From assembly GCA_041737595.1 (NCBI GenBank), contig JBGSRK010000010.1, forward strand, positions 117,375-181,374: a stretch of DNA of 64,000 nucleotides, written 5' to 3'. The notes under the pieces are model-generated. The model was not told the origin of the DNA and did not search any database. It saw nothing but the letters and a program-made list of their open reading frames with translations. Source of the stretch: Patescibacteria group bacterium (GTDB taxonomy: Bacteria > Patescibacteriota > CPR2 > UBA1875). Made by a program: the position numbers and the translations under genes. Shown one piece after another: positions 14,933 through 59,436 of this stretch. Position 1 is the first letter of the stretch. The number at the start of each line of letters is the position of its first letter.

Positions 14933-17092
14933 TTAATAGATTATAGGTCCAAGAAAAAGAGAATTAAGTGCATTATTAGAAATTGGAACTATATTACCCC
15001 ATTTATATAATGGATCATAAACACTATGTTCATTAAAAGTTTGTGCACTAAAAACTGGCATTTTAGAACCTGACCCAATAACATAAACTGAACCATTATT
15101 TGAACCAAGTCTAGTTAGACGATTTGGAGAAGGATAATTTAAAAGAAAGGTATTATTTTTAGTATAAAAAATATTTATCCATGCAAACCCCCAATTATAA
15201 AAAGTATCTACATCAACGATTGGCCTTTTACCATCATCATCCATAAAATAAACCGAACCGCCATACGAATAGGTTACCAAACGTGGAAAAGTAATAAGTG
15301 CTCCTTTTGTCATTAAATTATAGGTATTTGCTGAAATTTTTTTAATATCACCCCATCCTAAACCCCAATTATCTTTAAATATATTAAAAGTGTCTGAGTC
15401 ATTAATTGGTCTTAATTTACCTTCTTGGGCCAAATAAACACTCCCAGTGTACAAAGCTAATTGAGTTAGTGGTTCTCCAGTTGGATATGTGTTAATAGTT
15501 GATAATGGTGCCCAATATACATTATCCCAATTAAAACCCCAATTATTGAATATACTACTATTTATAATTGGTCTCTTGTAGCCATTTTCAATATAAAAAA
15601 CACCACCAAGATTATATGATCCAATAAGATAGTCTTCAAAATTAACATTAAAAGTAACTGAATTTGCGTCGTGGCTATTTTGGGTAATTCTTATTTTATT
15701 CGCAGAATCATAAAACTCTCCTCCATCAGTAAGGGCAATATCTGACCAATTATTTGCTGGAGTCATATCTAAAAGATATGTGTCAAAAGGAACAGGCGGA
15801 TTATAATAAGGAGTATTAAAATAATCGGTATAAATTCTCCCAATAAGTCCCCTCGTAACCCCGGTGGGAAGATTAATGTCAAACCCTGTCGGTTGGCGAT
15901 ATTCAAACCAATAATAATCACTGGTGTTTGGTTTGGCGATTTTTAAAGCATGGTATCCCATTGTCGAGCTTTCCAAATCATCAATCGTATATGTCCCCGA
16001 CGTAGTAATGGTTCTCACCTTACCGTCCGGGACCCAACCTGCTTTATTTTTCCAGGCTGCATTCATATGAAAAACATTTGTCCAGCTACCGTTGCCACCC
16101 ATAACATCATATGCATCCTCATATCCTGTTGCCCCAGGCGTGCAAGAGGCATAAGCAACGATTGTTGATGCTCCGCAGTCTAAATTGCTTGAATGACCAG
16201 CACCGAAATTGTGCCCTAATTCATGAGAATAAACAAACCGGTCATTGTTTCCATTGTACCAAGTTTCGTCCCCGGAGACTTCTCCTAAACCTGCCCAACT
16301 ACACGACAAATTGTATGGGAAAATATACATAAATTTGGCATAGCTTGCTAAATTATATCCAGCATCTGTTGCGGCAGTGCGAGCAGCAACAGTCCATTGA
16401 TCTAATAGATTCCCAACTCCATAATATGAACATCCGACACCACTACTAAAAGGAATCGTGAGCCAACTTGACGTAACATTAGTAACGGTGCCATTTATTG
16501 ATACTTCTCCATTAGAAGCTTGTTTATAATAACTATTTGCCGAATCGGCATTTGAAAAAATCTGACCAGTAATTAGTGCCTGAGTAAAAGGCGCTGCTGA
16601 TGGGTCATTTTCCCAATTAAAAGTAATTGCAAGAACATCTTGCTGGCCGGTAATTTCTCTAACTGGTGGAATTAGAGTTTTGACTGTTTCAGCAACAAAT
16701 AAACCATCTATTTGATAACCTTCAACATTAACAGTTGAACCTGATTCTGCCATTTTCGTATCTTTTAAACCATAAAGATCAAATTTATTATTATCAGTTT
16801 CTAAAATAGTTATTTCAGTACTAGTATTCTCAGATGAAGCAATTAATCTTTTCACTTCTCCTTTTATACTTATCTTGGGAATATCTTTAAAATCATCTTT
16901 TATGAGCGCTTTTGAATCTGTTTGTATTTTTTTAATTAAACTTTTTTTATCAGAAATATGGGTGTACGTTTTTTGTTTATCTGGATTATTTATTTTAAAT
17001 TGTAATTGATTATTAACATCAATAGAATTTGGACTACCCCAAAACAAGACTAAAGCAAAAACAAACAATAGAAGATGTAATATTTTCTTCAT
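14933..17092 (-). CDS. Secreted metzincin-family zinc metalloprotease with C-terminal ~40-aa repeat domain
   Basis: 719 aa with a signal peptide (MKKILHLLLFVFALVLFWG) and VYSHELGHNFGAGHS, which is HEXXHXXGXXH. The C-terminal roughly 210 aa consist of repeated G-x-Y-x-I-x-x-G-x-[KR]-R-P-I...F...GF-W units shared with the next gene. Confidence 0.6.
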   Translation of the reverse strand: MKKILHLLLFVFALVLFWGSPNSIDVNNQLQFKINNPDKQKTYTHISDKKSLIKKIQTDSKALIKDDFKDIPKISIKGEVKRLIASSENTSTEITILETDNNKFDLYGLKDTKMAESGSTVNVEGYQIDGLFVAETVKTLIPPVREITGQQDVLAITFNWENDPSAAPFTQALITGQIFSNADSANSYYKQASNGEVSINGTVTNVTSSWLTIPFSSGVGCSYYGVGNLLDQWTVAARTAATDAGYNLASYAKFMYIFPYNLSCSWAGLGEVSGDETWYNGNNDRFVYSHELGHNFGAGHSSNLDCGASTIVAYASCTPGATGYEDAYDVMGGNGSWTNVFHMNAAWKNKAGWVPDGKVRTITTSGTYTIDDLESSTMGYHALKIAKPNTSDYYWFEYRQPTGFDINLPTGVTRGLIGRIYTDYFNTPYYNPPVPFDTYLLDMTPANNWSDIALTDGGEFYDSANKIRITQNSHDANSVTFNVNFEDYLIGSYNLGGVFYIENGYKRPIINSSIFNNWGFNWDNVYWAPLSTINTYPTGEPLTQLALYTGSVYLAQEGKLRPINDSDTFNIFKDNWGLGWGDIKKISANTYNLMTKGALITFPRLVTYSYGGSVYFMDDDGKRPIVDVDTFYNWGFAWINIFYTKNNTFLLNYPSPNRLTRLGSNNGSVYVIGSGSKMPVFSAQTFNEHSVYDPLYKWGNIVPISNNALNSLFLGPIIY
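15334..15509. repeat. ~177-bp near-identical segment shared between the two paralogous secreted-protein genes (copy 1)
   Basis: Direct comparison: ...tttaatatcaccccatcctaaaccccaattatctttaaatatattaaaagtgtctgagtcattaattggtcttaatttaccttcttgggcc... There are 2 mismatches against 17543..17718, and the flanks are about 80% identical. Confidence 0.8.
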
Positions 17093-17141
17093 TGTATTTA
17101 TTATAACAAAATAATTAGTATTTTATTTTAAAAATAAAATA

Positions 17142-19205
17142 CTAATAAATAATTTCTCCCAATTGTAATAAAGAGAGTGGATAATCAGAAATTGGTACAA
17201 CATCTTCCCAGCGATATAATGGATCAAATGTACTGTGGTTAATAAACGATTGAGCACTTGAAATTGGTCTTTTTGTTTTATTTTCAATGAGATAAATTGA
17301 CCCACGGTTAGAAACTAATCTAGTTAAGCGATTAGGGGAGGGGTAATTTAAAAGAAAGTTATTATTTTTAGTATAAAAAATATTATTCCAAATAAACCCA
17401 AAATTATTAAAAGTATCAATACTGTTAATTGGTCTTTTGCCATCGATATCCATAAAAAAAACTGAACCACCATATGAATAGGTAACTATTCTAGGAAAAT
17501 ATATTTTCACACCGACATTATAATAATTAAATAGATCAGTAGAAATTTTTTTAATATCACCCCATCCTAAGCCCCAATTATCTTTAAATATATTAAAAGT
17601 GTCTGAGTCATTAATTGGTCTTAATTTACCTTCTTGGGCCAAATAAACACTCCCAGAGTACAAAGCTAATTGAGTTAGTGGTTCTCCAGTTGGATATGTG
17701 TTAATAGTTGATAATGGTAAATTTGTATAATTATTTGGATACCCCCATGAATTATTTATTTCAATTTTATTTGCGGGTCTTTTTTCTCCACCATCAATCA
17801 AATAGTAACCATTTAGACCTTTTGTAGATACCCAAGGATTAACATTTGACCCTATAGATAAAAAATTAATAGAACTATCATCTAATATTGTAATATTATA
17901 ATCTTCAAGTTTTAATATAGCTATTAGTTGGTCGGAAATTAATTTTTTATTTCCATCATCAATAATATATTTTAAACCACTACTACCCTTAACTATAAAT
18001 GAAGAAAAATTATTCCCTAATATAAAATTAATATCACTTGAAATATCAGTAATTTTTATTTTAGGATAACCTAATTGTGAAATTAATTCTGGGTTTGTGA
18101 TATATCTCAATATCCCGTTATCCATAAAATAAAATTTACCGCTTTCTGGCTTTCTTATTATTTGTGATAATGACCCAATATCGTTTAACGTATATGAATT
18201 AATTGTATTAAGAATAATAATATCATCCCAATTAAACCCCCATAAATTAAATTGTTCTGGACTTACTATACCAAGTCTTGACCCTCTATCTATAAAATAA
18301 ACATGACCATTAATATTTATTAGCTTTGTTAAATTAACTAAACTTGTTGTATAACTATTAAAACTTTCTTCTGTAATATAATAAATTTTTCTTGTATTAA
18401 ATCCCCAACTATTAAAAATATTTGCTGGAATTGGATATTTTTTATTATTATCGACTAGATATACTCCCGTAGGGTTGTTTTCATTAACAATCAAATATGG
18501 GCCATCAGAATTAACAGTGCTAAAAAAATTTGTAAAAATTAGATAAAACGATGTTTGGATATGTGGCGTATATCTATACAAGGCTGCGGTTGGTCCATTT
18601 TTAATAATAAATGTTTGGCCATCAATTGTTATCGGATAATCAACCCAGTATTTAGTAGTACCAAAATCATTATATTCACTATGAGAAATTGCATAATCAG
18701 ACCACTTTTTTAGTCCAAAAGAACCCCATGCGACCTGCATTGAAAACCCCTTATAAACAGATAAAGTAATGCCACTTTCTAAATAGCCATAACCCATAGC
18801 TCCGTCTAATGAACTTTGCCCATTAAGTAACACTGAATTAGTAATTAAACTTTGTTCTTTTTGAAGTGTTACAAGAATTACTTTTGGGCTAAGACCATTC
18901 CAAATTGCACAATTATATATAATTTTTGATGCAGACCAACCCTTAACATTAACCGAGGGGCCTATATATACATCATTCGGCTCAGTATAATTTTTAAGAT
19001 AACTATTTTTTTCAACTAAAAATGACTGAATTTCAGCTTCATTCATAGAATATCTATTATAATATACCCCTTCATCAATAACTAAACTATTATCAAGGGC
19101 TGCCAATACTTCACTGGGGTTAAAAATAAGAAACAAACATGAAACAAAAAACATTAACCCTAGGATAATTAGTTTTGAATTAAATTTAAAGATAGTTAAT
19201 TTCAT
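17142..19205 (-). CDS. Secreted repeat protein, paralog of the preceding gene's C-terminal domain
   Basis: 687 aa with a signal peptide. The C-terminal region is near-identical to the 14933..17092 product (STINTYPTGEPLTQLALY.GSVYLAQEGKLRPINDSDTFNIFKDNWGLGWGDIKKIS...) and more internal repeats of the same type follow. Confidence 0.55.
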   Translation of the reverse strand: MKLTIFKFNSKLIILGLMFFVSCLFLIFNPSEVLAALDNSLVIDEGVYYNRYSMNEAEIQSFLVEKNSYLKNYTEPNDVYIGPSVNVKGWSASKIIYNCAIWNGLSPKVILVTLQKEQSLITNSVLLNGQSSLDGAMGYGYLESGITLSVYKGFSMQVAWGSFGLKKWSDYAISHSEYNDFGTTKYWVDYPITIDGQTFIIKNGPTAALYRYTPHIQTSFYLIFTNFFSTVNSDGPYLIVNENNPTGVYLVDNNKKYPIPANIFNSWGFNTRKIYYITEESFNSYTTSLVNLTKLININGHVYFIDRGSRLGIVSPEQFNLWGFNWDDIIILNTINSYTLNDIGSLSQIIRKPESGKFYFMDNGILRYITNPELISQLGYPKIKITDISSDINFILGNNFSSFIVKGSSGLKYIIDDGNKKLISDQLIAILKLEDYNITILDDSSINFLSIGSNVNPWVSTKGLNGYYLIDGGEKRPANKIEINNSWGYPNNYTNLPLSTINTYPTGEPLTQLALYSGSVYLAQEGKLRPINDSDTFNIFKDNWGLGWGDIKKISTDLFNYYNVGVKIYFPRIVTYSYGGSVFFMDIDGKRPINSIDTFNNFGFIWNNIFYTKNNNFLLNYPSPNRLTRLVSNRGSIYLIENKTKRPISSAQSFINHSTFDPLYRWEDVVPISDYPLSLLQLGEIIY
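17543..17718. repeat. ~177-bp near-identical segment (copy 2)
   Basis: Second copy of the repeat at 15334..15509. Confidence 0.8.
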
Positions 19206-23430: not shown

Positions 23431-23505
23431 ATCAGTATTTTATATTTAAAACACCCCTCCGTCAAATACCCATATTAATCTCTTTTTATTATATTATTTA
23501 TAGTA

Positions 23506-23537
23506 CTTATGCTTTAGTAATGTACATTAGTAAAGTG
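23506..23537. repeat. 32-bp direct repeat copy A1 containing 12-bp perfect palindrome TAATGTACATTA (candidate operator), in galU promoter region
   Basis: cttatgctttagtaatgtacattagtaaagtg is identical to 23970..24001. The central 24 bp are near-palindromic. Confidence 0.8.
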
Positions 23538-23573
23538 ATATCTAGGTGGTTTAATATTGTAAATTATAGCTGT

Positions 23574-23954
23574 TTATCTTTTAGATATCGGTATTATGCC
23601 TGGAATACCCTTGTATTTTACTTTATGACTTTTTGAATAATTAATAATTACATCTTTTATATTATCAATATTTTTTCTAGTATTTCTAGAAGGATTTCTG
23701 CGAAAACCATACCCAATATGGTTACTAAGTCTAGCAATAATAGTTGAGCTAACCTTAACTTCTTGTTGAATCATTGAATATGAATATCCTGCATTAAGCA
23801 TTTCGAGTATTTTAAGTCTTCTTGCCATATCATTAATTTCACGAGGAGTTAAAATTCTTTCAAAAAGTAACTCAACATCTTTTGTTGTATTTGTAGAGGC
23901 AACTATTTTAATTAAATCTTTAATTTCTTTTTCAAACCAGATATCAATTGACAT
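23574..23954 (-). CDS. TrpR-like DNA-binding protein, YerC/YecD family
   Basis: 126 aa. ...FERILTPREINDMARRLKILEMLNAGYSYSMIQQEVKVSSTIIARLSNHIGYGF matches the YerC/YecD (Trp repressor-like) family. Its paralog lies at 58845..59201. Confidence 0.7.
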   Translation of the reverse strand: MSIDIWFEKEIKDLIKIVASTNTTKDVELLFERILTPREINDMARRLKILEMLNAGYSYSMIQQEVKVSSTIIARLSNHIGYGFRRNPSRNTRKNIDNIKDVIINYSKSHKVKYKGIPGIIPISKR

Positions 23955-23969
23955 GAGTTCTCCTTTATC

Positions 23970-24001
23970 CTTATGCTTTAGTAATGTACATTAGTAAAGT
24001 G
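23970..24001. repeat. 32-bp direct repeat copy A2 (same palindrome), immediately upstream of the TrpR-like gene
   Basis: Identical to 23506..23537. It lies in the promoter region of 23574..23954. Confidence 0.8.
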
Positions 24002-24031
24002 TTTATATATTTATTATTTCAAAGTATTTTT

Positions 24032-26636: not shown

Positions 26637-26655
26637 CCCCTGCATATAGCAGGGG
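26637..26655 (-). terminator. Hairpin (cccctgc-atata-gcagggg) followed by U-rich tract on - strand
   Basis: 7-bp GC-rich stem, then UGUUUCAUUUUCUGU on the - strand, directly after the stop of ORF 26677..27024. Confidence 0.4.
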
Positions 26656-26676
26656 CTTTGTGCGACACAATGGTCG

Positions 26677-27024
26677 CTAGTTCGGGTTCAACACCGGGTT
26701 GGCTTCGAGGATATTCCCAATAATGCGATCGAAAACAATCGGGAGACCATCGATACCCTGAAGGGTACCACAACGCCGGCTGACACCATCAACGTTGCCG
26801 AGGTCAGGAGTTGATATGAAAGTGATGTCATCGTTTGGTGCACGATGAACCACAAACATGCCCTCAGGGCCCTGATATGACACGCAGTGACCTTCCTTCA
26901 GAGTTACAGCAACACGACGATCTTCACCAATTCCGTAGGTAGTATCAAACTGACCTGCGTAGGCTGGGAATGTCTCGAGAAATTGCTCAAGACGTGTCCG
27001 GACCTTACATGTACTTGCCTTCAT
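26677..27024 (-). CDS. Hypothetical protein encoded in an anomalously GC-rich (~50% GC) islet
   Basis: 115 aa: MKASTCKVRTRLEQFLETFPAYAGQFDTTYGIGEDRRVAVTLKEGHCVSYQGPEGMFVVHRAPNDD... Its codon usage is GC3-rich, unlike every neighbouring gene, and I recognise no family. Confidence 0.4.
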   Translation of the reverse strand: MKASTCKVRTRLEQFLETFPAYAGQFDTTYGIGEDRRVAVTLKEGHCVSYQGPEGMFVVHRAPNDDITFISTPDLGNVDGVSRRCGTLQGIDGLPIVFDRIIGNILEANPVLNPN

Positions 27025-27086
27025 CTACACTCCTCTTTTCGAGATGAACACACAAGCAGAAATTATATCAAACTTTAGGCTTTATG

Positions 27087-27117
27087 TCAAAGAAAAGTCC
27101 ACTCTTTCGAGTGGACT
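27087..27117 (-). terminator. Rho-independent terminator of hsp20
   Basis: AGTCCACTC-tttc-GAGTGGACT hairpin followed by UUUCUUUG on the - strand, 26 nt after the hsp20 stop. Confidence 0.65.
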
Positions 27118-27142
27118 TTTATAATAAACACCCTCCGCAAAT

Positions 27143-29031: not shown

Positions 29032-29776
29032 ATAGGGTTAATAATTCGCGACCCTGTGACATTATTTTAGTTTGAGCATCTATCGCAGAAAAAAGTACTT
29101 CCCATGTGTAGTGATAATCTTTACCATCTTTAATCCCTGCATCATTTGTTATTACTCCAAGTGAATCATACCCTTTTATAAGCAGAATGTGATAAGTATT
29201 ATCTCGACCATAATGTGGATTTTCTAAAGAATGAGTCATAACTGGCACAAGAACGGGACTGCCTTGTGAAATTAATTCTTTAATATTTTCTTTTGTACCA
29301 TTATTAACTATTGAATATTTATATTTATAATAATCATTTGCAAACTTCCCAAGCTTAATTATAGATAGATCAGGTTCTTCTCCATAATTATTTTTTTGCC
29401 ACGTTTTCATTGCCCTTATATCTTTATCTACTTCTAATTGATCAAGATTTGATGAACTATTTTCTATAAGGTATTGATGATACATTAAAATTGCTGCCTC
29501 CTCGCAAGATTCTTCATGAACAGTCCAATTTGCAAATGGGGCTTGGACTGTGAATGGAACTGATAATAAATTATTTTCTTTAATTATTAATTTTGGTTCT
29601 ATTTCTTTTGGAGTTTCTTGCTCGGATTCTTCATTTATAATTTCAGGCTTAATTAGATTATTATTCTTTTTTGCTAAAAACCCCAACACTCCAAATGTAA
29701 TAAATAATAAAGAAAGAGCCATAAATAAATAGGCCCTTTTTTGATAGAATTCTGAAATTCGATTATTTTTCTTCAT
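29021..29776 (-). CDS. Secreted/membrane-anchored peptidase C39-like domain protein
   Basis: 251 aa with an N-terminal TM/signal. VPFTVQAPFANWTVHEESCEEAAILM...H... resembles Peptidase_C39_2 (Q/C/H). Confidence 0.45.
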   Translation of the reverse strand: MKKNNRISEFYQKRAYLFMALSLLFITFGVLGFLAKKNNNLIKPEIINEESEQETPKEIEPKLIIKENNLLSVPFTVQAPFANWTVHEESCEEAAILMYHQYLIENSSSNLDQLEVDKDIRAMKTWQKNNYGEEPDLSIIKLGKFANDYYKYKYSIVNNGTKENIKELISQGSPVLVPVMTHSLENPHYGRDNTYHILLIKGYDSLGVITNDAGIKDGKDYHYTWEVLFSAIDAQTKIMSQGRELLTLSKG

Positions 29777-29826
29777 GTTATTTGATTGATTTTATTTCTC
29801 TGAAACTCTGAAATTTTTTTCGACAT

Positions 29827-29919
29827 TGGCGGTGAGGGAGAGATTCGAACTCTCGCGCCGGATTACTCCGACCTACAGGTTTAGCAAACCCGCCCCTTCA
29901 GCCTCTTGGGTACCTCACC
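29827..29919 (-). tRNA. tRNA-Ser (anticodon GCU), CCA encoded
   Basis: Reverse complement GGTGAGGTACCCAAGAGGCTGAAGGGGCGGGTTTGCTAAACCTGTAGGTCGGAGTAATCCGGCGCGAGAGTTCGAATCTCTCCCTCACCGCCA. It folds as a cloverleaf with a long variable arm and a T-loop TTCGAAT. Confidence 0.85.
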
Positions 29920-30212
29920 TCGTCAGCGTAAGCTGACGAGCTTCAAAATCTTTTTATAAAAAATTTCTATGCTCTTTCGCTACGCTTCCTCTGCAGTTGA
30001 AATCGACAGATTTCAACTGGAAAGAAACAGCTTAAGCCATTTAAATCTCTTCCTTTAACTAATATGGCGGGGTAAAGATTCCCCTTCGCTCCAACTCAGG
30101 GTCCGGGTCACTGCACACCGAAAGCTCCAGGTTTTCGCTTTCTCTCGCTCCCTTCGAATCCCCTTTATCTACAATTATTTTTACGTTCTAGACAAGCTAG
30201 ATCGTAAAAATA
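29920..30212 (-). ncRNA. Candidate structured ncRNA between the two tRNA-Ser genes (5' part tmRNA-like); identity unresolved
   Basis: The stretch has no ORF, is GC-elevated, and has perfect hairpins at 29920..29940 (9 bp) and 29994..30019 (11 bp). The - strand at about 30165..30120 reads GGGGAUUCGAAGGGAGCGAGAGAAAGCGAAAACCUGG, which resembles the conserved tmRNA 5' region GGAUUCGACGGGA...GCGAAACCC. I could not find a canonical GGGG acceptor 5' end or a T-arm/CCA 3' end. Confidence 0.25.
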
Positions 30213-30302
30213 TGGCGGAGAGGGAGGGATTCGAACCCCCGGTACCCTTGCGGGTACAACAGTTTTCAAGACTGCCGCAATCGACCACTCTGCCACCTCT
30301 CC
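30213..30302 (-). tRNA. tRNA-Ser (anticodon UGA), CCA encoded
   Basis: Reverse complement GGAGAGGTGGCAGAGTGGTCGATTGCGGCAGTCTTGAAAACTGTTGTACCCGCAAGGGTACCGGGGGTTCGAATCCCTCCCTCTCCGCCA. Confidence 0.85.
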
Positions 30303-30359
30303 AGGTCTAAAACTACAAAAGAGCTTGCTATCGCTCCTTTACTGATTAATCTGTTTTTC

Positions 30360-30435
30360 TGGTGAGCCCGGTGCGACTCGAACGCACGACCAATTGCTTA
30401 AAAGGCAACTGCTCTACCAACTGAGCTACGGGCCC
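30360..30435 (-). tRNA. tRNA-Lys (anticodon UUU), CCA encoded
   Basis: Reverse complement GGGCCCGTAGCTCAGTTGGTAGAGCAGTTGCCTTTTAAGCAATTGGTCGTGCGTTCGAGTCGCACCGGGCTCACCA. Confidence 0.85.
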
Positions 30436-30506
30436 GTAAAAAGCTTTTAGATTTTACATCAAAATGAACCATTTTTCAAGACTACTATTTGTAGTATGAT
30501 TGTAAT

Positions 30507-32120
30507 ATGCAGGAGGGTACACAAAAAGATATACGGTCAGTTGTTTCTTCATATAACCGAGATGAAATAGAGAAAGCGACTGAAGAACAAGCAAAGGAAT
30601 TGAAGATTCCTTATTATGATGTTAGAAAATCTGAAATCGCAACCGATATTCTTTCATTAATAAATAAAGAAGAAGCTCAAAGAGGAGTTATTCCGATTAT
30701 GTTGAAGAATAAATCTTTGAGTCTTGGAGTTACTGATGTTCGCGAAGATAAGATCCAAGATATTATTAGTTATTTAAAAAATAGTTTTAATATTAATAAA
30801 GTATTAATTTCTTGGGCATCTGTTAAAGATATTCTCCCAAGATACGATGGGTTAATAAAAAGAAATCTTGAAGAAAAAGAAGATTATGAGATCACCGCAA
30901 CTGAAGGAATATTAACTTTTTCTGAATTAGAAAGCCAAATAAATTCTGCACCACTCCAAAATATTTTAAGCTTTATTGTTTCTTCGGCTATTTCTTCTAA
31001 TGCCTCTGATATACACCTAGAACCTCAAAAAGAGGGGGCAAGAATTAGATTCCGAGTTGATGGAGTACTACATGTTGTTGGTACTATGGGTGAGGAGAGA
31101 TTTAAATATATTTTATCTCAAATAGAACTTTCTGGTGGGATGAAGCTTAATGTAGATGAAGCTCAAGAAGGAAGAATTGAGATAAAAATGGCTAAAAAAA
31201 ATATCAGTGTTCGTATTGAAACAATGCCAACACTTTATGGCGATGATATTTCTTTGCGTATTTTTAATACAGAGTCAACTTTGCTGAATCTTTCAGATTT
31301 AGGGTTATATGATTATAATTTAAAATTAATTAATAATTCACTAGCCAGACCCCAAGGAATGATTTTGGTTGTTGGACCAACTGGAGCAGGAAAAACCTCG
31401 ACAATTTATGCGGTATTAAATGTACTAAATAAACCAGAAGTAAAAATTATTACCCTCGAAGACCCAATTGAATATGCTCTAACTGGAATTACTCAAAGTC
31501 AAATACATGAAGATGAGAGCTTTAATATAAGGCTTAAAGCTGTTTTAAGGGAAGACCCAGATATTGTTATGGTTGGAGAAATTAGAGATGCTGAAACAGC
31601 CGATGTAGCACTCCACGCAGCATTAACTGGCCATGTTATGATATCAACCTTTCACGCCTACAACGCCGCAACAGCGGTTACATTACTCAGGGAGATTGCA
31701 ACTAATGGAACATTACTAGCTTCTGCAATAAATTTAATAATTGCTCAGAGATTAGTTAGAAGAATTTGTGAAAAATGTAAAATAGAAAAAAAATTGACTG
31801 AAAAAGAATACCAATATGCTGCAGATTTGTTTGATGAAATACCTGATGAAATAAAAGGTGAAAGAAAATTATCATTCTTTGAGGGCAAAGGTTGTGAAGA
31901 ATGTAAGGGGATCGGATATAAAGGTAGAATTGCTATTCATGAAATGCTACAAATGAATGTTGAATTTCAAAAAGTTGTCGCAAGAGAAGATATAACTGTT
32001 AGTGAAATCCAAGAAGCGGCAAAAAAATCTGGAATGGTTACTATGGAACAAGATGGGCTCTTAAAAGCAATTGATGGGATTACATCACTTTCAGAAGTAA
32101 TGAAGGCAATAAAAGAATAA
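30507..32120 (+). CDS. GspE/PilB-family secretion/pilus assembly ATPase
   Basis: 537 aa. Walker A VVGPTGAGKTS, ITLEDPIEY, a His box, and the C-terminal tetracysteine CEKC...CEEC motif of PilB/GspE are all present. Confidence 0.8.
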   Translation: MQEGTQKDIRSVVSSYNRDEIEKATEEQAKELKIPYYDVRKSEIATDILSLINKEEAQRGVIPIMLKNKSLSLGVTDVREDKIQDIISYLKNSFNINKVLISWASVKDILPRYDGLIKRNLEEKEDYEITATEGILTFSELESQINSAPLQNILSFIVSSAISSNASDIHLEPQKEGARIRFRVDGVLHVVGTMGEERFKYILSQIELSGGMKLNVDEAQEGRIEIKMAKKNISVRIETMPTLYGDDISLRIFNTESTLLNLSDLGLYDYNLKLINNSLARPQGMILVVGPTGAGKTSTIYAVLNVLNKPEVKIITLEDPIEYALTGITQSQIHEDESFNIRLKAVLREDPDIVMVGEIRDAETADVALHAALTGHVMISTFHAYNAATAVTLLREIATNGTLLASAINLIIAQRLVRRICEKCKIEKKLTEKEYQYAADLFDEIPDEIKGERKLSFFEGKGCEECKGIGYKGRIAIHEMLQMNVEFQKVVAREDITVSEIQEAAKKSGMVTMEQDGLLKAIDGITSLSEVMKAIKE

Positions 32121-58742: not shown

Positions 58743-58798
58743 AAAATATTTAACTTTAACAATTTTAGTTTATAAATTATCTTTTATATTATTTATCA

Positions 58799-58817
58799 CT
58801 ACACTACTACGTAGTAA
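58799..58817. repeat. 19-bp repeat copy B1 with 12-bp perfect palindrome TACTACGTAGTA, downstream of the second TrpR-like gene
   Basis: ctacactactacgtagtaa is identical to 59266..59284. Confidence 0.75.
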
Positions 58818-58844
58818 GACAGTGGTAAAAAAATATTTTAAGAT

Positions 58845-59201
58845 TTAATTAGGAATAATTCTTTTAATAACAGCAGGAGAACCTTTATAACCACGAGGAG
58901 AATATTTATGAATAGGTTTCTTATTATTTATTGCAATCTTTTTAGAAGTTCTTCTAAAACCAAAACCAATTTGATTGGCAACCCTTCCTATGGTGGTTGG
59001 GCTTACACGAAGTATATCTTGTATCTCTAAATATGAAGTACCCATATCTAATAATCTGACAATTTCTAATCTTTTAGCCATATCATTTATTTCACGAGGT
59101 GTTAATATTCTATCAAAAAGTACACGAACTTCTTTGTCGCTATTTGTCTTTGCAATAACTTGAATCAATTTATTGATTTCTTTTTCTCTCCAGTAATCCA
59201 T
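58845..59201 (-). CDS. TrpR-like DNA-binding protein, YerC/YecD family (paralog 2)
   Basis: 118 aa. MDYWREKEINKLIQVIAKTNSDKEVRVLFDRILTPREINDMAKRLEIVRLLDMGTSYLEIQ... is about 55% identical to 23574..23954. Confidence 0.7.
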   Translation of the reverse strand: MDYWREKEINKLIQVIAKTNSDKEVRVLFDRILTPREINDMAKRLEIVRLLDMGTSYLEIQDILRVSPTTIGRVANQIGFGFRRTSKKIAINNKKPIHKYSPRGYKGSPAVIKRIIPN

Positions 59202-59265
59202 ATTATTTATTATACTTATGTTTTTAAATAATTTAAAGATTATAATAAAATCTACACCTATTTTG

Positions 59266-59284
59266 CTACACTACTACGTAGTAA
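59266..59284. repeat. 19-bp repeat copy B2 (palindrome TACTACGTAGTA) in promoter region of TrpR-like paralog 2
   Basis: Identical to 58799..58817, about 65 nt upstream of the start codon at 59201. Confidence 0.75.
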
Positions 59285-59436
59285 TGTAGTGTTAATTACT
59301 TGTTGTTGATACTCTAAATCTATAAATTATATATTAATAAAAAATATTAGTAACGATAGCGTTAAAAATATAAAGAATATTAAAATCTTAATCAAAAGAG
59401 CCCGCTTGGGGGAGCGGACTCAAAAACAGGGGAAAG

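Follow-up and report, generated by a model that had tools for sequence, protein, structure and literature searches.

The 293-nt spacer between two tRNA-Ser genes in a Patescibacteria genome is best read as a probable transcribed spacer inside a tRNA operon

What kind of DNA lies between two tRNA-Ser genes that are separated by 293 nt, an RNA gene in its own right or a part of the tRNA operon around it? A preliminary description of this region had proposed a reduced or non-canonical ssrA gene, another RNA such as 6S or SRP, or a tRNA-operon leader, with a processed tRNA-operon spacer as the fallback. Here the region is called spacer X (29920-30212, minus strand, hence 30212-29920 in the operon sense) and the whole 64-kb stretch of DNA that was analysed is called the window; all the coordinates are those of the window.

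The window is a segment of a low-GC (32%) bacterial chromosome carrying genes for dnaK, dnaJ, a PilB/GspE ATPase, ComF, HSP20 and a C39-like peptidase, and its nearest protein relatives are annotated as Patescibacteria (CPR). By ARAGORN and Rfam, the known RNAs in the window were four tRNAs and nothing else. Three of the four are on the minus strand at this locus, each with an encoded CCA, and the locus is arranged, in the operon sense, as follows.

30451..30479, minus strand: promoter-like site TTGAAA-17-TAAAAT upstream of tRNA-Lys, with 10/12 matches in the promoter scan.
30360..30435, minus strand: tRNA-Lys(UUU), first gene of the operon (ARAGORN; Rfam, 71.7 bits).
30303..30359, minus strand: Lys-Ser spacer, 57 nt; its homologue in relatives is the Lys-Ser(GCU) spacer.
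30213..30302, minus strand: tRNA-Ser(UGA), CCA encoded (ARAGORN; Rfam, 58.2 bits).
29827..29919, minus strand: tRNA-Ser(GCU), last gene of the operon (ARAGORN; Rfam, 52.6 bits).

Spacer X is exactly the gap between the two tRNA-Ser genes as delimited by both ARAGORN and Rfam, and its ends coincide exactly with the mature tRNA ends. The promoter-like site is likely the single promoter of the tRNA operon, and its arrangement (TTGAAAAA...TAAAAT) is also conserved in relatives. The Lys-Ser spacer holds a small conserved hairpin (GGAGCgauagcaAGCUCUUUU), with similar sequence in the related loci L015 and L007. The gene of the C39-like peptidase begins 50 nt downstream of tRNA-Ser(GCU), with no terminator between the two. 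Precisely, the scan of the minus strand from 29600 to 30600 gave no terminator-like sites, and the promoter scan gave no sigma-70-like promoter on the minus strand inside X.

Since one promoter lies upstream of tRNA-Lys and no terminator is found as far as the C39 gene, X would be an internal spacer of the operon. The best reading of the sequence is thus an operon made of the promoter, tRNA-Lys(UUU), tRNA-Ser(UGA), spacer X and tRNA-Ser(GCU), in which X would be transcribed as an internal spacer. The proposal of a tRNA-operon leader or spacer agrees with what we found (a single sigma-70-like promoter, no operon-strand terminator in X, and boundaries set by the mature tRNAs), and the processed tRNA-operon spacer, given as a fallback, is the best-supported reading of X. 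In bacterial tRNA operons, internal transcribed spacers are taken out by RNase P together with the nucleases that process the 3′ ends. Like them, X is placed between tRNAs of the same strand, with a single promoter upstream, is bounded by mature tRNAs, has no ORF and is unconserved between lineages. Unlike them, it is 293 nt long (4-57 nt in the relatives), it has three strong hairpins and it contains a 99-nt block with the GC content of tRNAs.

The features of the sequence that had been described in X are all present. Its GC content is above that of the surroundings, as had been noted (41.6%, as against 32% for the window and 18-26% for most of the other intergenic gaps). The excess is concentrated in a 99-nt core (30065-30163) with a GC content of 58.6%, to be compared with 58-60% for the tRNAs, and this core ranks among the four GC-richest 100-nt windows in the 64 kb. 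We also confirmed that the gap holds no ORF: there is none of at least 30 aa inside X, and the ORFs that touch it (29826-29936 and 30212-30310 on the plus strand, 30165-30296 and 30181-30288 on the minus strand) mostly cover the tRNA genes. A small protein encoded in X was rejected, as no frame has a start codon and at least 30 aa and the stop-free stretches are explained by the GC content. The features of X, all on the minus strand and in the operon sense, are listed below.

30176..30212, minus strand: hairpin H1, UAUUUUUACGaUCUAG-cuugu-CUAGAaCGUAAAAAUA, 10+5 bp (-12.9 kcal/mol, z -5.5).
30127..30163, minus strand: the 'tmRNA-like' motif GGGGAUUCGAAGGGAGCGAGAGAAAGCGAAAACCUGG, whose first 11 nt match 10/11 bases of the 5′ half of the tRNA-Ser(UGA) T-arm (GGGGGUUCGAA).
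30065..30163, minus strand: the core, 99 nt, purine-rich (G36 A25 C22 U16), 58.6% GC, starting with GGGG and ending with CCCCGCCA.
30065..30084, minus strand: small hairpin GGGG-AAUCUUUA-CCCC, followed by GCCA (4.8 bits, E 0.54, with a structured tRNA-Ser model).
30061..30070, minus strand: 10-nt direct repeat CCGCCAUAUU, second copy, repeating the one at 30209-30218 where tRNA-Ser(UGA) ends.
29994..30019, minus strand: hairpin H3, CAGUUGAAAUC-UGUC-GAUUUCAACUG, a perfect stem of 11 bp (z -4.4), with no U-tract after it.
29941..29993, minus strand: AT-rich stretch (GCAGAGGAAGCGUAGCGAAAGAGCAUAGAAAUUUUUUAUAAAAAGAUUUUGAAG), in which lie an 'AEEA*' frame and a weak A/U hairpin.
29919..29940, minus strand: hairpin H5, CUCGUCAGC-UUAC-GCUGACGAG, a perfect stem of 9 bp (z -4.2).

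The two perfect hairpins of 9 and 11 bp that had been reported are real (29919-29940 and 29994-30019). H1, a strong but imperfect hairpin, was absent from that description; it begins at the first base after the CCA of tRNA-Ser(UGA). In H5, the final G is G+1 of tRNA-Ser(GCU) and forms the last pair of the stem, which would put the RNase P cleavage site at the base of the stem. The 64 kb contain only 10 perfect hairpins whose stem has 9 bp or more and whose loop has 3-8 nt, and two of these fall within X; as a control, 20 shuffles were scored in the same terms and had 0-9 such hairpins each, about 5 on average. All three strong hairpins of X lie at the mature tRNA ends or close to them.

As a whole, the 293 nt of X fold better than their shuffles (z -4.0 for the minus strand and -5.4 for the plus strand). 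The 99-nt core alone, on either strand, folded no better than shuffled sequences (z +1.1, +0.9 and +0.3). As the core is near its shuffles and the hairpins have z values from -4.2 to -5.5, the folding signal of X comes from the three AT-rich hairpins. The 'structured' signal is not from the GC-rich part that bears the tmRNA-like motif.

The hairpins were also considered as rho-independent terminators. Like these, X has strong intergenic stem-loops of 9-15 bp, and the relatives close the operon with a canonical terminator. Unlike these, the hairpins of X lack a U-tract in the operon sense: H1 is followed by AUAAUUGU, H3 by CAGAGGAA and H5 by GUGAGGUA, and the U-run of H1 is on its 5′ side, so that H1 is no canonical terminator. 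This candidate was rejected.

The proposal of a tmRNA had come from the motif GGGGAUUCGAAGGGAGCGAGAGAAAGCGAAAACCUGG, which is present on the minus strand as quoted (30163-30127). The resemblance to the 5′ region of tmRNA is real over a short distance: against positions 13-32 of E. coli ssrA the motif aligns as GGATTCGAAGGGA---GCGA, with 16/17 aligned bases identical, and the comparison of this hand-picked motif with the first 50 nt of E. coli ssrA gives p = 0.0005. It does not extend further, as X against the whole E. coli ssrA gives p = 0.15, which is not significant; the likeness is limited to one local word. With respect to the tmRNA families (RF00023 and the permuted RF04321), X has in common the 13-nt word GGAUUCGAAGGGA, to be compared with GGAUUCGACGGGA, then GCGA(A)AACC, and a position among tRNA genes, whereas it lacks their acceptor stem, G3-U70, T-arm and pseudoknot and has no credible tag frame, obtains no score with the covariance models and is unconserved in the relatives.

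ARAGORN with default settings called no tmRNA in the window, and no Rfam tmRNA family matched at the gathering score, nor at E<=10 on X alone. At the latter threshold X gave two matches in all, both of which were spurious hairpin matches. In a wider stretch of 801 nt the sole match of tmRNA type was to tmRNA_permuted; its 10.9 bits (E 8.8) compare with a gathering score of 47, and the alignment runs over the 3′ end of tRNA-Ser(UGA), H1 and then the start of the core, GGGGAUUCGAAGGGAG. Only at the 80% and 60% thresholds did ARAGORN report a 'tmRNAp', with a 4-residue tag (AEEA*), and these calls span real tRNAs.

A tRNA-like domain of a tmRNA was also looked for in X directly, and neither a 7-bp acceptor stem nor a G3-U70 pair was found, nor a T-arm with a 7-nt acceptor strand behind it. 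The candidates for an acceptor stem are GGGG/CCCC, which makes 4 pairs only, with GCCA directly after CCCC, and the 12 nt before GGAUUCGA (UGUAGAUAAAGG), which have no 3′ partner in X. No pseudoknot segments were evident in the folds of X, which were made with a tool that does not predict pseudoknots, and no plausible tag frame was found in X.

We considered a reduced or permuted tmRNA, made of X alone or of X with the neighbouring tRNA end, as scarcely credible. Its case consists of the 16/17 match with the p value of the chosen motif, of the order T-arm, CCA, hairpin and GGGG..., which mimics a permuted tmRNA gene and obtains the 10.9-bit match, and of the low-threshold ARAGORN calls. These points have to be set against the missing default and covariance-model calls, a score far under 47 for a match that moreover covers the 3′ end of a tRNA-Ser which is itself genuine and conserved, the missing acceptor, T-arm and pseudoknot elements, and a tag of four residues, which is implausible. 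In addition, ssrA is normally conserved, unlike X, which is missing from relatives at the syntenic site. The idea of a reduced or non-canonical ssrA was hence dropped.

The other RNA families fared in the same way. The check with covariance models that had been suggested for the region gave no tmRNA, SRP or 6S hit in X, and the proposal of a 6S or SRP RNA is unsupported, as no model matched on either strand. Bacterial SRP, 6S and RNase P RNAs had no match in X at the gathering score and none at E<=10, and ribozymes and riboswitches had no Rfam match. A single hit of RNase P type was to the Plasmodium RNase_P model (21 bits, as against 100), in an A/T-rich stretch, and was considered spurious. 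Group I introns have been reported as frequent and divergent in tRNA genes of Patescibacteria, and some of them escape the Rfam model RF00028 (PMC13011429). In this case a group I intron, which would be expected between the two halves of one tRNA and typically with 200 nt or more and a P3-P9 core, was rejected because both flanking tRNAs are complete, X contains no tRNA half-exons and there was no match at E<=10.

PilB homologues of 64-75% identity exist, and the readable clusters represent five distinct syntenic relatives (L007/L008, L009-L011 and L013, all with 64% PilB identity, and L015/L016 with 73%). Their shared neighbourhood consists of HSP20, ComF, a hypothetical gene, the C39 peptidase (in some), the tRNAs, pilB, dnaJ, dnaK, grpE and hrcA. 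All five relatives have the tRNAs in the order Lys-Ser(GCU)-Ser(UGA), with 4-16 nt separating the Ser genes and, wherever the contig continues past Ser(UGA), a canonical terminator (hairpin plus T-run). The Lys-Ser spacer is homologous in the window, L015 and L007, but it leads into Ser(UGA) in the window and into Ser(GCU) in the other two loci. None of L007-L011, L013, L015 and L016 has spacer X at the syntenic site; X is missing from lineages at 73% PilB identity or less.

The Ser genes themselves have changed little. With respect to L015 there are 2 differences in Ser(UGA) over 37 comparable nt and 3 in Ser(GCU), and tRNA-Ser(GCU) has a mean column identity of 96% with the relatives. The closeness of the Ser genes to those of L015 argues for vertical inheritance with a local rearrangement. 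In L018, a closer relative whose C39 peptidase is 76% identical in amino acids (82% in nucleotides over 881 nt), Ser(GCU) adjoins the C39 gene through a similar 50-nt junction, and the contig starts inside the tRNA, before the region of X. This junction shows the swapped order in at least one closer lineage too, and the 82% nucleotide identity suggests that the swap need not be old. The short-read contigs of the closest lineages end inside tRNA-Lys.

Further copies or homologues of X were looked for in several ways. No second copy was found in the window or in the fetched loci. Two 20- to 21-mers of the core gave no hits in viral contigs, two anchored patterns gave none in metagenome contigs, and blastn against phages and plasmids gave chance hits only. 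An H1-like tail was searched for in the relatives through a spurious 43-aa ORF over Ser(UGA) and H1, and none was found. A pilB-based search of genome contigs for X returned one unrelated locus, the look-ups of PilB homologues recovered the synteny but not X, and the search by way of the C39 peptidase led to L018, with its contig cut inside the tRNA.

On balance, we consider it probable, with some reserve, that X is a lineage-specific transcribed spacer produced by a rearrangement (by duplication and loss or otherwise) that swapped the two tRNA-Ser genes. In the proposed sequence of events, a local rearrangement in the lineage would have swapped the order of the tRNA-Ser genes and X would have arisen with the swap. 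If the swap came about by simple tandem duplication, three copies and two exact deletions would be required, and the difference in sequence between H1 and H5 would still be unexplained.

Two other explanations of X were considered. The first is that X is a cis-acting leader, that is, an internal promoter or processing signal by which Ser(GCU) and the C39 peptidase could be expressed independently of Lys-Ser(UGA). In the window no terminator stands behind the last tRNA, in contrast to the relatives, and the C39 gene is 50 nt downstream; the conserved Ser(GCU)-C39 junction shared with L018 and some TATAAA-like words in the AT-rich stretch before H5 also fit such a leader. However, the sigma-70-like site that it would use is not found inside X on the minus strand by the promoter scan, and with no U-tract behind any of the three hairpins, termination followed by restart is not evident. 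We consider a leader of this kind unlikely.

In the second explanation, X is what is left of foreign or mobile DNA that was inserted (repair filler, a decayed miniature element, or the scar of an attachment site at a tRNA-Ser 3′ end). With respect to other lineages X is indeed an insertion, the GC content of its core is unlike that of the local intergenic DNA, and the 10-nt repeat CCGCCAUAUU, for which a rough estimate of the chance expectation is ~0.04, has one copy where tRNA-Ser(UGA) ends and another where the core ends, so that 138 nt are bracketed. An inserted element, on the other hand, finds no terminal inverted repeats when the ends of X are read, no integrase or transposase next to X, where the flanking genes are as in the relatives, and no match in phages, plasmids or viral contigs. 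X is also single-copy in the 64-kb window and the fetched loci, and the repeated fragment of the tRNA end is not faithful to the tRNA 3′ end. This origin we likewise regard as improbable, and a mobile element or integrative scar as such was rejected, the 10-nt direct repeat being the only trace of the kind beside the lack of terminal inverted repeats and of a second copy in the window or loci.

Returning to the spacer produced by a rearrangement, the core may preserve something of the rearranged genes. Its G discriminator and CCA are as in the tRNA-Ser genes and its length is about that of a class II tRNA. The small hairpin at 30065..30084 resembles a tRNA 3′ end, but without a T-arm or a 7-nt acceptor strand. 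In a global alignment with lenient gap costs, the core against tRNA-Ser(GCU) has z 4.1, with 0/3000 shuffles reaching the score, and in the corresponding local alignment p is ~0.006; the boundaries of the core were set after its tRNA-like ends had been noticed, which bears on these statistics. The alignment is colinear over words of the D-loop, anticodon loop, variable arm, T-loop and 3′ end. When X was compared with the unit Ser(GCU)-spacer-Ser(UGA), the score was 46, as against 25 +/- 4.6 for the shuffles (p <= 0.002 in two of the four scoring schemes), and the alignment reaches past the core into the AT-rich part. With a sequence-only profile of Ser(GCU), the core was the top hit that is not a tRNA (3.5 bits, E ~0.06, model positions 38-85).

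Under stricter gap costs, by blastn (E >= 0.4) and by nhmmer, no similarity between the core and tRNA-Ser was found. The purine-rich 5′ part of the core resembles the hairpin of the Lys-Ser spacer too, which suggests low-complexity purine coincidences. No cloverleaf was found in X: the Rfam tRNA model and ARAGORN match only the three flanking tRNAs, ARAGORN with introns allowed and an 85% threshold adds nothing in X, and a structured tRNA-Ser(GCU) model has no full-length match there. An unusual, intron-containing or permuted tRNA was also rejected, as the calls of ARAGORN were all implausible when introns were allowed, when the mitochondrial mode was used and when the thresholds were low.

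We consider these comparisons as only suggestive of a tRNA-Ser(GCU) ancestry of the core. More speculatively, duplication and loss, in producing the swap, could have left behind a duplicated Ser(GCU)-Ser(UGA) unit of which the core, perhaps with the stretch after it, is what remains after decay. Such an origin would explain the ends of the core (GGGG...CCCCGCCA), its tRNA-like GC content and the T-loop-like and D-loop-like words that resemble the 5′ region of tmRNA. X is like tRNA pseudogenes or relics in its changed gene order, in a core that is tRNA-like in length, GC content and ends, and in its weak colinear similarity to Ser(GCU); it is unlike them in that neither blastn nor nhmmer finds the similarity significant, there is no cloverleaf, the GC content has not decayed and the path of rearrangement is complicated. 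A neutral relic would be expected to drift towards AT, and 58.6% GC in a genome of 32% GC argues against it, although with 82% nucleotide identity to L018 the event could be rather recent. Similarly, three strong hairpins in 293 nt suggest selection on RNA structure, for which a pure relic has no need.

In one more explanation, the core (30163-30065) would be a lineage-restricted small RNA, co-transcribed with the tRNAs and released by the enzymes that process them; it would perhaps be tRNA-derived and CCA-ending and have acquired a new role, for instance that of a protein decoy or of an RNA that pairs in trans. Consistent with this, the core equals the tRNAs in GC content where most intergenic DNA is at 18-26%, it starts with GGGG and ends with CCCCGCCA as do the neighbouring tRNAs with their encoded CCA, and it has hairpins on both sides within a transcribed operon. 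Yet it folds no better than its shuffles on either strand, its purine excess (G36/C22, A25/U16) limits the pairing that it can form, and it has neither an Rfam match nor a cloverleaf. Furthermore, X is absent at 64-73% PilB identity and no homologue appeared in any search made. We therefore hold a small RNA to be possible but doubtful. Its narrower version, a young tRNA-Ser-derived small RNA that has lost the cloverleaf, kept the G-rich 5′ end and the CCA 3′ end and taken up a new function in a narrow lineage of Patescibacteria, seems to us more doubtful still. A decoy of the CsrA type was rejected as unconvincing: by eye there are six GGA words in the 99 nt, as against ~3 expected from the composition.

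For the reading that we prefer, a lineage-specific internal transcribed spacer, the handling of X can be outlined on the basis of general bacterial tRNA maturation, from which the proposed steps are drawn. The whole operon would be transcribed as one precursor, in which RNase P would generate the 5′ ends of the tRNAs, in the case of Ser(GCU) by a cut at the foot of H5. Endonucleolytic cuts within X would be followed by trimming to the 3′ ends with encoded CCA, and the RNA of the spacer would be degraded afterwards. The hairpins of X could act as insulators of tRNA folding or as endonuclease or processing sites, rather than as terminators.

An annotation of 29920-30212 as ssrA, SRP or 6S RNA is thus unwarranted. 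In more general terms, words derived from tRNAs (UUCGA, GGGG...CCA) that lie in the gaps between tRNA genes can pass for the tRNA-like 5′ region of a tmRNA, and the GC-rich islands of AT-rich genomes are not automatically genes of structured RNAs. X would be moderately interesting only if the core is a stable RNA, and otherwise it matters little beyond annotation. The swap of the two Ser genes is a small example of the turnover of tRNA clusters in reduced genomes.

We compared the tRNA order at 29827-30435 of the window with that of the syntenic loci of relatives (L007, L009-L011, L013 and L015/L016) and of the contig of a closer relative, L018. The tRNA-Ser pair was found to be swapped, the order being Lys-Ser(UGA)-X-Ser(GCU) in the window, where X is the 293-nt spacer at 29920-30212, whereas it is Lys-Ser(GCU)-Ser(UGA) in five syntenic relatives. 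The canonical terminator at the end of the operon, present in the relatives, is missing in the window, and the junction between tRNA-Ser(GCU) and the C39 peptidase gene is common to the window and L018.

In the Lys-Ser spacers of the window (about 30316-30337, minus strand), L007 and L015, a small hairpin with a U-run directly after it, GGAGCgauagcaAGCUCUUUU, is conserved and may represent an attenuator or a processing signal within this operon. In the GC-rich 99-nt core of X, the word GGAGCGA recurs at two places.

Outside the operon, the following hairpins, palindromes and terminator were recorded in the window:

17114-17146: perfect 15-bp hairpin with a 3-nt loop, almost pure A/T, where a short gap separates two ORFs with ends at 17092 and 17142
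23505-23538 and 23969-24002: one repeat of about 31 nt, TTATGCTTTAGTAATGTACATTAGTAAAGTG, present at both positions
27093-27120: canonical bidirectional terminator, AAAAGTCCACTC-TTTC-GAGTGGACTTTT
58797-58825 and 59266-59292: two further palindromes, CTACACTACTACGTAGTAAtGTAG-like and related to each other, both within the AT-rich gap 58743-59436

The first of these is the longest perfect hairpin of the window. The terminator exemplifies the normal terminator form in this genome, and the hairpins of X are unlike it. The gap 26646-27142, between ORFs of at least 120 aa, has a GC content of 47%, unusually high for non-coding DNA of the window; it probably holds a 115-aa ORF (26677-27024, minus strand), and Rfam gave no match in it.

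The two repeat copies near 23.5 kb, each containing a near-perfect 24-bp palindrome, sit on either side of a 126-aa ORF (23574-23954, minus strand) and resemble operators or a terminator that occurs twice. Because the word AGTAATGTA is common to their palindromes and to those near 59 kb, both pairs may be sites of one DNA-binding protein.

Several short-read contigs of the clade break inside tRNA-Lys or tRNA-Ser, namely L002, L003, L012 and L014 (at their 5′ ends), as well as L015/L016 and L018 (at their ends). Therefore, tRNA clusters and the DNA between their genes are systematically absent from those assemblies.
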